Below are positions 25,146 through 28,393 of a stretch of DNA of 64,000 bases, one piece after another. The notes under the pieces are model-generated. The model ran no database searches and was not told the DNA's origin. It saw only the letters and a program-made list of their open reading frames with translations. The DNA lies in assembly GCA_030705955.1 (NCBI GenBank), contig JAUZPL010000012.1, forward strand, positions 6,833 to 70,832. The letters are read 5' to 3'. Source of the DNA: Bacillota bacterium (GTDB lineage Bacteria; Bacillota; Bacilli; Bacillales; Cytobacillaceae). The first letter of the stretch is position 1, and the number at the start of each line of letters is the position of its first letter. A program made the position numbers and the translations under genes.

Positions 25146-25646
25146 ATGGAAAAAAAGAAGCTGGGTTTTAATATTATAAAAAGTGACCCAACAGATGGGC
25201 ACCGGGGTTATGGAAAAGGTGCTTTAAGCCTTGATAATGTATCTCCTGTGATTATTGATGTGGAAGCAGGAGAGGCAACCATTGATGTTGGAGCCATGCA
25301 TGCTAGAAGTGTAATTGAAAAAGGAATAAAATTTCTTCCTTCAAAAGAAGAGGTACCAAATGGAAAACCACACTGGCTGGTCTGGGTCACCATTGATAGA
25401 GATGAAAATGGGCCATATTATGCTGGGGTGACTGCCTGCGAAATGACGGTTGACCGCGAGATTCGAAGAGGCTATAAATCCCTTCCAGAACATGTGAACC
25501 GGATGGATAAATCCCTCAAAAGACATATTATAGTCGACCATATGGATAATCGATCAAAAAAAATATTAGCCAATTTTCTTCGTGAACATAATGAAGAATA
25601 TTGGAACCATTCCTCTGAAAAGCTGAAAGAGGACTTATTCGTGTAA
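25146..25646 (+). CDS. ywhD: YwhD-family protein
   Basis: 166 aa, syntenic between ywhC and pbpG. Confidence 0.65.
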   Translation: MEKKKLGFNIIKSDPTDGHRGYGKGALSLDNVSPVIIDVEAGEATIDVGAMHARSVIEKGIKFLPSKEEVPNGKPHWLVWVTIDRDENGPYYAGVTACEMTVDREIRRGYKSLPEHVNRMDKSLKRHIIVDHMDNRSKKILANFLREHNEEYWNHSSEKLKEDLFV

Positions 25647-25760
25647 TAAACACTATCCAAATGTGGCAAATTTTCGAAATTGAAATCAAAGTGTATTGTA
25701 GTTTTTAAATAAAACAAGTAAACTATAAGCAACGTGAATACACGTTAAACTAGGACAGAA

Positions 25761-25800
25761 AAAGCTCCCTGTATAGTACTTGGGGCTTTTTTATTTTTTT
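25761..25800 (+). terminator. Probable ywhD terminator
   Basis: AAAGCTCCC-N12-GGGGCTTT followed by TTTATTTTTTT. Confidence 0.55.
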
Positions 25801-25896
25801 ATAAAAGATCAACAGGAATAAAAATGAAGAGAAAATAACTTATGCCAGGCGCCCGCCTGGCATTTTGAATGGCAAAAAAAGGTGAATTTAAAGAAG

Positions 25897-26025
25897 ATGA
25901 CGGGTAAAAAGTGCAAAGTGACGGGTAAAAGGGGAAAACCTGCTGGTAAAACAAAAAAACCGACTGGTAAAAAACAAAAAGTGACGGGTAAAGAGGAAAG
26001 ACCCTTTCATCAGGAGGATACTTGA
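25897..26025 (+). CDS. Hypothetical Lys-rich micro-ORF inside repeat unit 1 (42 aa, MTGKKCKVTGKRGKPAGKTKKPTGKKQKVTGKEERPFHQEDT)
   Basis: Hand translation. A heptad K-x-T/A-G-K-x-x follows the 21-nt DNA period. The only SD-like AAGGTG is 12 nt upstream, and the opposite strand is also open, so coding status is unproven. Confidence 0.2.
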   Translation: MTGKKCKVTGKRGKPAGKTKKPTGKKQKVTGKEERPFHQEDT

Positions 26026-26104
26026 ATAAAAATGAAGAGAAAATAACCTATGCCAGGCACTTGCCTGGCATTTAGAATGACAAAAAAAGGTGAATTTAAA
26101 GAAG

Positions 26105-26239
26105 ATGACGGGTAAAAAGTGCAAAGTGACGAGTAAAAGGGAAAAACCTGCTGGTAAAACAAAAAAACCGACTGGTAAAAAACAAAAGGTGACGAGTAAA
26201 GAGGAAAGACCCTTTCAACGGGAGGATCTTTTAATCTAA
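26105..26239 (+). CDS. Hypothetical Lys-rich micro-ORF inside repeat unit 2 (44 aa, MTGKKCKVTSKREKPAGKTKKPTGKKQKVTSKEERPFQREDLLI)
   Basis: Paralog of 25897..26025. In the repeat core, 3 of 4 differences are non-synonymous. Confidence 0.2.
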   Translation: MTGKKCKVTSKREKPAGKTKKPTGKKQKVTSKEERPFQREDLLI

Positions 26240-26271
26240 AAATGAAGAGGACCTGCCTGGTGCATATTAAA

Positions 26272-26320
26272 ATCCCACAAAAAAAAGAAAAAACCCGCTG
26301 GACTCCTCATTTCCAACGGG
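26272..26320 (-). terminator. pbpG terminator
   Basis: ACCCGCTGG-N11-CCAACGGGT with a long T-run on the minus strand. Confidence 0.7.
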
Positions 26321-26326
26321 TAAAAA

Positions 26327-28393
26327 TTAATGCCCCCAATGTAAAATCCGCTGATACCATGGAATTTGCTTTGTTTGTTTCTCCATCTGTTTTAAATCGG
26401 ATTGTGGCAGGTGGTCCGTACAATATTCTGTTGGTTCGGTCCCAGTTACGAAATAAGTGAATCGTCTGACCGGACAATCACTTGTCGCGAGCTTACCATT
26501 TGTAGGATCTACATAAACGCCTACTACTCCTTCTTTTGGAGCCTTGAATTTTTTGATAGGCTGATCCTTTAATGCATCTTCCATAAAATGAGCCCAAATA
26601 TATTTAGCATAGGTTTTCTCGGCTACGAGGTCGATGGATTGAGCCTTATCGTAGCCTGTCCAAACAGCTGTTACTAGCTGCGGGGTAAAGCCAATCATCC
26701 AGCTATCTGTTTCGGTAGAACCAGATTTTCCTGCATATGGACGGGATAGCAGCTTAAGAACCGTGCTGCCTGTCACGCTTGAATATCCATTTAATTTAGG
26801 GTCAAAAATACCTTTCAACATTTGAGTCATCACAAATGCTTTTGCAGGATCAAGAATTTGCTCATGATCAGGTTCTTTTTGATAGATGACTTTTCCGTTA
26901 AAGTCTTCAACCCGTGTAATAAGAGTAGGAGTTACCTTTTTTCCTCCATTGGCAAATAGACTATAAGCACTGGCCATATCAATAATGCGAACACCTGAAG
27001 ACCCAAGAGCAAGGGAAGGAACCTTCTTCATTTTTGTTGAAATGCCAAACTTTTTGGCTGTTTGGACTAATGTATCCTCTCCCATAAATAAATGAGTTTT
27101 TACCGCAAAAATATTATCTGAAAGAGCAAGTGCCTGGGCCAATGTAATTTCCCCATCAGCATATTTATTATTAAAATTATGTGGGGAATAAGTAGCACTC
27201 CCATCATCAAAGCGAAAGGTTGTAGGTTCACTCCTCATTGTTGTGGAAGGAGTAAAGCCTTGTCCAAGGGCTGCATAATAAAGAATGGGCTTGATGGTAG
27301 AACCCGGCTGTCTAATTGCCTGCACAGCTCGATTAAAAGGGCTTTTTGCATAGTCCCTTCCACCAATCATCGCTTTGACATTCCCTGTATTTGGGTCCAT
27401 TGCAACTAAACCGGTCTGAATATCCGACCCACTTGCAATGGTTTTCTTGACCTCATCCTCAGCAGCCTGCTGGTCCTTTAGATTAAGGGTGGTATACACT
27501 TTTAAACCGCCTAAAGCAATCGTACGGTCATCTAAGTGAAGCTGGTTTTTAAGTGCATTTTTAACAGCATCCTGAAAGTATGGTGCCACACCCATATGTT
27601 GATGTGGGTACTTTCCAACAAATGTAAGGGGAGCTTGTGCTGCTGAATTGGCAGTCTTTTTATTGATATACCCATTGTCAATCATAGACTTCAGGACAAT
27701 ATCCTGCCGCCTTTTGGCATTTTTAATGGAAACGAGAGGAGAATAAATCCCAGGTCCCTTTGGAATTCCTGCAAGCATAGTAGCTTCTGCAAGGGTTAAA
27801 TCAGAAGCATTTTTTCCAAAATAATATTGGCTTGCGGCTTGAACACCATAAGCTCCATTTCCATAGTAAATGGTATTTAAATATCCCTCGAGGATATCAC
27901 TTTTTGAATAATTCATTTCAAGGCGTAGTGTATAAAAAGCCTCAAGTAACTTTCTTGACCATGTTTTATCATATTCAAGGAAAAGATTTTTTGCATATTG
28001 CTGGGTAATCGTACTGGCCCCTTGTACTTTATTGAATGCCCTAATATCAGCAAATGTTGCACTGGCAATACGCTTAAAGTCAAAGCCATGGTGATGATAA
28101 AAATTTTTATCCTCAATAGAGACCGTTGCATCAACCAAGTCAGGAGAAATATCCTTCATATGCACCCAGTACCGCTTTTGGCCGTTGTCACTTTCCCCTA
28201 TCACTTTGCCGTCATCAGAAAAGTATAAACTTGACTGTGGGACTGCTAGCGGAGGTGCCCCTAAAACCTTTGCGTAGGCAAGAACGCCACAGAGGAGAAG
28301 AAGCATACAAACCATGCCTATCAAACTGATGATGATAAAAGCACGAAGATATTTAATTGTTTTTCGAAACCCTTGATCAGTCATGATTTCCAC
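26327..28393 (-). CDS. pbpG: Class A penicillin-binding protein (transglycosylase/transpeptidase; PbpG/PBP2D-like)
   Basis: 688 aa. N-terminal TM, GT51 motifs (EDKNFYHHHGFD, GASTITQQ), SxxK-type STIKP, SDN, KSGST. Confidence 0.85.
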   Translation of the reverse strand: MEIMTDQGFRKTIKYLRAFIIISLIGMVCMLLLLCGVLAYAKVLGAPPLAVPQSSLYFSDDGKVIGESDNGQKRYWVHMKDISPDLVDATVSIEDKNFYHHHGFDFKRIASATFADIRAFNKVQGASTITQQYAKNLFLEYDKTWSRKLLEAFYTLRLEMNYSKSDILEGYLNTIYYGNGAYGVQAASQYYFGKNASDLTLAEATMLAGIPKGPGIYSPLVSIKNAKRRQDIVLKSMIDNGYINKKTANSAAQAPLTFVGKYPHQHMGVAPYFQDAVKNALKNQLHLDDRTIALGGLKVYTTLNLKDQQAAEDEVKKTIASGSDIQTGLVAMDPNTGNVKAMIGGRDYAKSPFNRAVQAIRQPGSTIKPILYYAALGQGFTPSTTMRSEPTTFRFDDGSATYSPHNFNNKYADGEITLAQALALSDNIFAVKTHLFMGEDTLVQTAKKFGISTKMKKVPSLALGSSGVRIIDMASAYSLFANGGKKVTPTLITRVEDFNGKVIYQKEPDHEQILDPAKAFVMTQMLKGIFDPKLNGYSSVTGSTVLKLLSRPYAGKSGSTETDSWMIGFTPQLVTAVWTGYDKAQSIDLVAEKTYAKYIWAHFMEDALKDQPIKKFKAPKEGVVGVYVDPTNGKLATSDCPVRRFTYFVTGTEPTEYCTDHLPQSDLKQMEKQTKQIPWYQRILHWGH

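Follow-up and report, generated by a model that had tools for sequence, protein, structure and literature searches.

The DNA analysed here is a stretch of 64,000 nucleotides on contig JAUZPL010000012.1, from a metagenome-assembled genome (MAG) of a Bacillota bacterium, and is referred to as the window throughout. Between two convergent genes in this window, ywhD and pbpG, lies a spacer of 680 bp (25647–26326, measured between the two stop codons), most of which is taken up by a nested tandem repeat: 208-bp units that are themselves built around a series of 21-nt sub-repeats. The array spans 25816–26326 and abuts the pbpG stop codon. A first-pass annotation had described a 680-bp spacer with two such units and no indels, and its coordinates agree with ours to within one base. 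The genes and the repeat features are as follows (no strand is assigned to repeats and hairpins).

25146–25646, plus strand: YwhD-family gene (PF08741)
25816–26023: unit 1, full 208 bp, found by Tandem Repeats Finder, repeat search and direct comparison
25842–25863: hairpin of unit 1, 9-bp stem ATGCCAGGC/GCCTGGCAT, loop GCCC, ΔG −16.2 kcal/mol
25897–26001: sub-repeats r1–r5 of unit 1, 5 × 21 nt, GGTAAA invariant
26024–26231: unit 2, full 208 bp, 14 substitutions and no indel relative to unit 1
26050–26071: hairpin of unit 2, stem as in unit 1, loop ACTT; overlaps a weak sigma-A-like match (9/12) on the plus strand
26105–26209: sub-repeats r1–r5 of unit 2, 5 × 21 nt, GGTAAA changed to AGTAAA in r2 and r5
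26327–28393, minus strand: pbpG, gene for a class A penicillin-binding protein (PBP); Transgly and Transpeptidase domains seen in orthologues

Anatomy of the repeat

Tandem Repeats Finder reports a period of 208 over 25816–26249 (2.1 copies, 92% matches, 0% indels), and a repeat search of the window pairs 25816–26023 with 26024–26231 at 93% identity. Compared directly, the two units differ by 14 substitutions, close to the 15 or so counted previously, of which 11 are transitions; there are no indels, and the divergence is 6.7%. The longest run identical between the units is 51 nt, and the tandem junction joins GGATACTT directly to GAATAAAAATG. Each unit opens with the 13-mer TAAAAATGAAGAG, which recurs at 26237, and holds a hairpin, an A7 run followed by AAAGGTGA, and five in-register 21-nt sub-repeats.

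The hairpin motif, ATGCCAGG-N6-CCTGGCAT, occurs exactly twice in the 64 kb against 0.01 expected. It had been noted in this form, with stems identical between units, which is correct; the hairpin is, however, better taken as having a stem of 9 bp and a loop of 4 nt (ATGCCAGGC-N4-GCCTGGCAT) rather than a loop of six. Three of the four loop bases differ between the units, and these changes (25851–25854 versus 26059–26062) make up 3 of the 14 unit differences, all being G-to-A or C-to-T (G to A, C to T, C to T); they look as though the loop, when extruded or single-stranded, had been a hot spot of deamination. The combination of constant stem and variable loop had been taken to argue for structural selection, but the absence of changes at 18 stem positions has a chance probability of 0.933^18 (P about 0.29), and a mutational hot spot fits the loop changes equally well.

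The five in-register GGTAAA repeats per unit, also described earlier, are present in both copies, with pairwise identities between sub-repeats of 11–17 of 21 positions (52–81%). Two subtypes can be told apart in unit 1: r1, r2 and r5 carry (A/G)TGACGGGTAAA, and r3 and r4 carry CC(T/G)(G/A)CTGGTAAAA. The motif GACGGGTAAAA, with at most one mismatch, is found nine times in 64 kb (1.0 expected), seven of these in the array and one at 26315, in an arm of the pbpG terminator. In unit 2 the same G-to-A change (GACGGG to GACGAG) has occurred in both r2 and r5, at window positions 26132 and 26195 (unit positions 109 and 172), 63 nt apart; micro-conversion, a hot spot or co-ordinated selection are possible explanations.

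A third copy and the two terminators

Next to unit 2, on the pbpG side, the repeat continues in degraded form up to the stop codon of that gene, and an intrinsic terminator lies at either end of the region.

25759–25791, plus strand: ywhD intrinsic terminator, inverted repeat, ΔG −14.9, A-run on its left and T-run on its right
26232–26326: degenerate third unit, colinear with unit positions ~4–158, ending at the pbpG stop codon
26292–26321, minus strand: pbpG intrinsic terminator hairpin, ΔG −16.0, U-tract encoded at 26280–26292

The start of a third unit had been recognized before, and a third copy does exist, but it is not confined to some 18–30 nt. Gapped local alignment of 26232–26329 with the unit gives a score of 55.2 and is colinear as far as 26326, whereas 1000 shuffles gave 20.9 ± 4.1 and never more than 38.2, and none of 166 native A-rich windows scored above 39.6; the ungapped part of this copy was also seen in the repeat search. 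An 18-nt deletion has removed its left hairpin arm, there are two more deletions of ~48 and ~16 nt and a 14-nt insertion, and most of r1–r2 has been lost.

The pbpG terminator is part of this third copy: its arms correspond by homology to the r2/r3 junction and r4 in the unit (AAAAAGAAAAAACCCGCTGG and CCAACGGGTAAAAA). The earlier link between the repeat motif and one terminator arm is therefore real and extends further, both arms being derived from the unit. In the five related spacers described below, by contrast with the two terminators seen here, the orthologue of the ywhD hairpin is the only terminator between ywhD and pbpG; since this one hairpin, with an A-run on one side and a T-run on the other, lies between both stop codons, it probably terminates both genes. 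Its stem varies by compensatory substitutions (GCTCCCTG/GGGGC versus GCTCCGGA/TCCGGAGC). In the window the ywhD terminator, potentially bidirectional by the same features, forms the left boundary of the spacer filled by the array and stands ~530 bp from the pbpG stop. pbpG appears to have acquired a separate, putative terminator from repeat-derived sequence.

A third copy that is colinear to the pbpG stop, and a terminator whose arms are unit-derived, argue for growth in place rather than for a foreign element having inserted. To the left of the array there is no partial copy and no homology to the unit, and no inverted repeats flank the array except the T-run/A-run of the two terminators; terminal inverted repeats of the element type are absent.

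Two further features of the spacer were observed. An ATG-initiated open reading frame (ORF) of 72 aa (26242–26460, plus strand) starts in the third copy, with GGGAGGA 15 nt upstream, and runs antisense into the 3′ end of pbpG; it has no Pfam match and is probably spurious, though a gene caller might report it. On the other side, ~80 nt upstream of the ywhD terminator (window 25690–25795) are kept across the related loci fetched, aligning with L001 1418–1520, L124 1931–2000, L128 1898–1950 and L004 4515–4600. This segment includes RTAAACTATAA, a small CGTG..ACACG hairpin and ACTAGGACA, has no match in Rfam, and could be a conserved 3′-untranslated-region (UTR) element or a small RNA with a TATAAT-like box.

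Distribution among relatives and in databases

The first-pass annotation had suggested looking for conservation of the repeat in relatives and had missed its absence from them. Five related ywhD–pbpG loci, from Neobacillus and related bacteria with YwhD proteins 85–90% identical to that of the window, were compared.

L001: YwhD 90%, spacer 228 bp
L004: YwhD 85%, spacer 121 bp
L124: YwhD 85%, spacer 158 bp
L126: YwhD 85%, spacer 76 bp
L128 (YwhD protein P0009; NCBI name N. pocheonensis): YwhD 87%, spacer 142 bp

The array has no counterpart in any of the five spacers, which measure 76–228 bp against 680 bp here. When the 680-bp spacer was searched against them by BLASTN, only 25690–25770, immediately before the ywhD terminator, found a match, and nothing from 25816–26326 did. 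The genes around the spacer are ordinary and syntenic: an HD-domain protein, a ywgA-like gene, a tautomerase, an M50 peptidase, ywhD, the PBP gene, speE and speB follow one another in the same order in the relatives fetched, and the window agrees with the established order in B. subtilis, ywhB-ywhC-ywhD-pbpG-speE-speB. YwhD itself is 100% identical to MDP4084211.1 (MAG: Bacillota bacterium, 77.5-kb contig); its next best matches, at 82–90%, are metagenome proteins and proteins of named Neobacillus species. Exact-protein look-ups with YwhD, the 47-aa ORF of the unit, YwhB and SpeE found no other assembly of the species on record.

Database searches were likewise negative. No further copy of the unit lies in the 64-kb window outside the spacer; BLASTN against 72,556 plasmids and 50,697 phages gave chance matches only (E about 0.6); and the best Rfam matches (E up to 10) scored 14–22 bits, the thresholds being 44–128. 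Transition-tolerant patterns for the ORF start and the hairpin had zero matches in two scans of metagenomes and one of viral contigs, such patterns reaching only close relatives. Among 5.8 billion proteins, neither the 47-aa plus-strand ORF nor the 78-aa minus-strand ORF had a relative sharing words with it, and neither matched Pfam or NCBIfam. An exhaustive phmmer search of 1.84 billion representatives produced five weak matches (E 6e-9 to 3e-4) to proteins of 232–1185 aa; the three that were inspected are low-complexity proteins with SRVTGH/ATGKDSH-type repeats, and their matches reflect compositional similarity, not homology.

Scanning genome contigs with the pattern GGTAAAA-N14-GGTAAAA-N14-GGTAAA returned at least 119 unrelated stretches, mostly 21-bp or 63-bp periodic repeats from Bacteroidota and other phyla, and BLASTN of the unit against stretches among the matches listed in that scan found motif-level similarity only. 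Examples of 21-bp-period GGTAAA(A) arrays from distant phyla (Kapaibacterium, Desulfacinum, Compostibacter) are L041 6741–6924, L061 6028–6139 and L074 3595–3750; some of them look intergenic, and they have the motif in common with the unit without being homologous to it.

Origin of the array

We interpret the array as a bacterial minisatellite, an orphan tandem repeat of nested build and restricted to one lineage, which grew in place next to pbpG, fills transcriptionally dead space between the convergent ywhD and pbpG, and has incidental roles at most. The probability of this reading is, in our estimate, roughly 0.6. It accords with the anatomy described above, with the absence of the array from the relatives fetched and of any homologue from the databases searched, with the homology of the pbpG terminator to the unit, and with the lack of a detectable selection signal in stems, core or reading frames, from which the array would be evolving neutrally.

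The order of events could have been as follows. An A-rich sequence directly 3′ of pbpG may have given rise to the 5 × 21-nt array by slipped-strand mispairing; a block of ~208 bp, comprising the hairpin, the A-run, the 21-mer array and a tail, would then have been duplicated head to tail, by unequal recombination or slippage, to about three copies; and the copy adjoining pbpG would subsequently have decayed by deletions, while supplying the hairpin that now probably terminates the gene. Such an expansion would have moved pbpG ~530 bp from the bidirectional terminator that it would have in common with ywhD in relatives. The two −16 kcal/mol hairpins of the intact units, with T-rich tails on the minus strand, could stop read-through from pbpG, and the 21-bp period, equal to two helical turns, would add bends in phase, for which strongly curved DNA is predicted.

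Several observations weigh against this interpretation. Two direct repeats of 208 bp lie side by side despite 6.7% divergence, and recombination between such repeats is usually much faster than divergence; the persistence of both units may hint at selection for keeping both, the alternative being that the copies stem from diverged alleles. The sub-repeats are only 52–81% identical, yet the exact 21-nt register and the same open frame are kept in both units. The ATG-initiated ORFs retain the same moderately good Shine–Dalgarno (SD) sequence (−8.5 kcal/mol), in the frame that is the best of six by codon score. That the same G-to-A change in r2 and r5 of unit 2 represents independent neutral events is unlikely. 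Finally, the pattern scans reach only close relatives, and the search for copies within the genome covered the 64-kb window. The retention of both units, the register and the twin G-to-A change are the only hints of constraint. They could also stem from diverged alleles that recombined unequally, from indels being rare over so few events (with ~16 substitutions, 1–2 indels would be expected), and from micro-conversion or a hot spot of mutation.

Predicted curvature and possible protein binding

Of the other explanations considered, all of them unlikely, a marginally higher probability goes to an architectural role in which the array binds protein. Each unit would offer five phased 21-bp sites, with the core GAC-GGTAAA on bent DNA, to a protein that senses curvature or reads a specific sequence, much as iterons do; insulation of the two convergent genes from each other, topological or transcriptional, could be the effect. 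The strict register of the five direct repeats and the invariance of the 6-bp core in unit 1 point in this direction, as do the persistence of both copies and a predicted curvature that is the strongest in the 64 kb. The core change found in parallel in r2 and r5 of unit 2 could be a sign that site specificity is co-ordinated. The invariance of GGTAAA in unit 1, however, does not reach significance (P = 0.066), and two of the five sites in unit 2 have a mutated core.

The curved-DNA signature put forward earlier is real as a prediction. For AA periodicity at 10.5 bp the array ranks among the top 7 of 1272 windows, and with two exceptions every window that scores higher overlaps the array or its flank. 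In a wedge-model trajectory (Bolshoy-type angles), the 105 bp of the unit 1 array have a predicted ratio of end-to-end distance to contour length of 0.726, compared with 0.948 ± 0.034 in the window, and are the most curved segment predicted in the 64 kb; the unit 2 array, at 0.794, falls in the lowest 0.5% of the window, and the 416 bp of both units together have a modelled ratio of 0.281 against 0.819 ± 0.11. Curvature of this kind is predicted for any 21-bp tandem repeat, because a period of two helical turns adds bends in phase, and it is thus no evidence of selection.

The surroundings also count against a binding array. No rep or initiator gene is found among the neighbours ywhC, ywhD, pbpG, speE and speB; matches to DnaA boxes are at chance level, without a cluster and with none inside the array; the plasmid and phage comparisons gave no similarity; and the neighbourhood is a syntenic housekeeping one. 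Compared by eye with the sites of Spo0A, AbrB, CodY, CcpA, PhoP, PurR, GerE, RacA, Noc, parS, dif and Ter, the core (GACGGGTAAA/TTTACCCGTC) bears, to our knowledge, no convincing resemblance to any of these Bacillus consensus sites. An array that is absent from close relatives is also not a conserved regulatory feature of ywhD or pbpG.

Coding potential

Both units contain a plus-strand ORF that runs through the sub-repeats.

25897–26025, plus strand: candidate Lys-rich ORF, 42 aa from ATG (MTGKKCKVTGKRGKPAGKTKKPTGKKQKVTGKEERPFHQEDT), with AAAGGTGA at 25878–25885
26105–26239, plus strand: candidate paralogous ORF, 44 aa, stop codon shifted relative to the first

Counted from GTG the ORFs have 47 and 49 aa, and a minus-strand ORF of 78 aa is also present; the 42-, 44- and 78-aa frames had all been reported before. 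The units could accordingly be recent, possibly de novo, tandem micro-genes for a very basic, nucleic-acid-binding peptide resembling a histone H1 tail, with the heptad x-T-G-K-x-x-K, translated from AAAGGTGA-N10-ATG. We regard this as improbable. The ORF is open in both units with start and SD alike, the period is a multiple of three, the variation among sub-repeats includes the synonymous pairs ACG/ACT and CCT/CCG, and the plus strand is strongly purine-skewed, as coding strands are. Against this stands the ease with which such a frame arises: a 21-nt repeat needs only one stop-free 7-codon unit to stay open across the whole array, which leaves the coding case weak.

The ribosome-binding site is present in both units but mediocre. 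With a duplex of −8.5 kcal/mol and a gap of 10 nt to the ATG it lies within the range of real genes in the window (SD median −10.8; gap median 6, 90th percentile 12.8), between their 75th and 90th percentiles, so that the earlier remark that the SD is poorly placed was too strong; 11% of random positions, however, reach −8 or better. By codon score the ORF frame is the best of six in either unit (0.11 and 0.06; off-frame −0.88 ± 0.41) and still ~2 standard deviations under real genes (0.43 ± 0.17). Between the 42- and 44-aa ORFs there are seven non-synonymous nucleotide changes and one synonymous change, in keeping with the first impression that most differences between copies are non-synonymous; two G to S and one G to E replacements fall in the conserved heptad, the stop codon has moved, and there is no purifying selection between the paralogues. 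No convincing promoter was found, the sole candidate being the 9/12 match in unit 2. A protein similar to histone H1 or to small acid-soluble spore proteins, as initially proposed, finds no homologue in the 5.8 billion or 1.84 billion protein sets, in Pfam or in NCBIfam.

Other possible readings: RNA, new function and assembly artefact

The array might instead be transcribed into a repeat-containing small RNA (sRNA) or form an extension of the pbpG 3′-UTR, an idea to which we give little credence. On the minus strand such an RNA would have a pyrimidine-rich body with CCUCC/CCCC motifs resembling anti-SD sequences and would finish with a hairpin and its U-rich tail. Plus-strand transcripts, rich in purines, would have the hairpins as punctuation, and the repeats could act by pairing with SD regions or by titrating a protein that binds RNA. 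The hairpins are stable (−17.2 kcal/mol with flanks), are terminator-like on the minus strand, though only there, and retain their stems while the loops vary, and the plus strand has a fold z-score of −2.26. On the minus strand, however, the tails, AAGTTATTTT in unit 1 and AGGTTATTTT in unit 2, are interrupted by AAG or AGG before the T-run, the z-score is only −1.27, no promoter was found inside the array, and the pbpG terminator stands upstream of the units. The one promoter-like match inside the array (9/12, unit 2) is on the plus strand. Apart from the hairpins there is hardly any structure in the centroids, nothing in Rfam comes near threshold, and with two sequences and no orthologues there is no material for covariation. 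The first-pass annotation had left open a coding role, an iteron or protein-binding array and an sRNA; its caution was right, and none of the three has gained a positive indication since.

A mixture of these ideas would be that repeats which arose at the flank of a terminator have taken on a new function, either because a frame with a fortuitous AAAGGTGA is now translated into a histone-tail-like, Lys-rich micro-protein with two diverging paralogues, or because the phased 21-bp sites serve as a curvature-dependent binding platform. Selection for the new activity would then explain how both 208-bp repeats have survived 6.7% divergence without collapse, but the odds of this seem to us long.

An assembly artefact, in which two strain variants of one 208-bp segment were concatenated or the copy number is wrong, is very improbable: although the source is a MAG contig, the 6.7% divergence of the copies is within the between-strain range and no second assembly of the species is on record, the longest identical stretch is 51 nt (k-mers of at least 55, or 150-nt reads, resolve the copies), the tandem junction requires spanning reads, a distinct third copy, which has deletions of its own and joins on at another kind of junction, comes next, and even one copy would still be absent from relatives.

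Implications and comparison with known repeats

If the array is the ordinary minisatellite that we favour, annotators should not call its 42–78-aa ORFs as genes, and the locus would serve well as a marker of strain type or assembly quality in this Neobacillus-like lineage. It would also exemplify how nested duplication can enlarge the intergenic space that separates convergent genes, and how a decayed repeat copy can be recruited as a terminator after a gene has been cut off from a once-shared one. Should peptides or a binding protein be demonstrated, the locus would instead represent the birth of a de novo gene or cis-element in a bacterium.

Three known systems resemble parts of the array. 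Iterons of theta-replicating plasmids are 17–22-bp direct repeats bound by Rep initiators; like the array, they come as four to seven direct repeats that recur about every two helical turns, combine a conserved core with spacers that vary, and bend intrinsically. Unlike iteron origins, the array lacks a rep gene, DnaA boxes, an AT-rich unwinding element and plasmid similarity, and sits in a chromosomal housekeeping context. With phased A-tract bent DNA, of which kinetoplast-type curvature is the model, it has in common A-tracts every 10–11 bp and strong predicted curvature, but the phasing here follows automatically from the 21-bp repeat and nothing shows that the curvature was selected. Lys-rich, histone-H1-like bacterial proteins include AlgP, Hc1/Hc2 and the C-terminal tails of actinobacterial HU, which we mention as a lead only. 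The 42/44-aa ORFs recall them in their short, proline/alanine/lysine-rich tandem basic motifs, whereas those proteins are longer and conserved and the ORFs have no detectable homologue or purifying selection.

Dispersed families, such as miniature inverted-repeat transposable elements, repetitive extragenic palindromic sequences and bcr1-like or MIRU-like elements, differ from the array in that no terminal inverted repeats with a target-site duplication flank the unit. The closest parallels are the intergenic minisatellites, or variable-number tandem repeats (VNTRs), of bacteria, for example the mycobacterial interspersed repetitive units (MIRU-VNTR) and the loci used in multiple-locus VNTR analysis (MLVA) for typing Bacillus and Paenibacillus (for general background, PMC5072193 and PMC5179023). 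The array matches these in its head-to-tail imperfect repeats of tens to hundreds of base pairs in intergenic DNA, its decayed terminal copy, the short ORFs running through the repeats, its restriction to one lineage and its probable origin by slippage or unequal recombination. Its assignment to the minisatellite class is set by imperfect head-to-tail copies in non-coding DNA and by absence in relatives, copy-number polymorphism, the property that defines a VNTR in practice, not being among these grounds. Whereas MIRUs are dispersed over many loci, the array has one known locus and no family in any database searched. What sets it apart from ordinary VNTRs is its nesting at two levels, 21 nt within 208 nt, and the apparent recruitment of one of its copies as a terminator.

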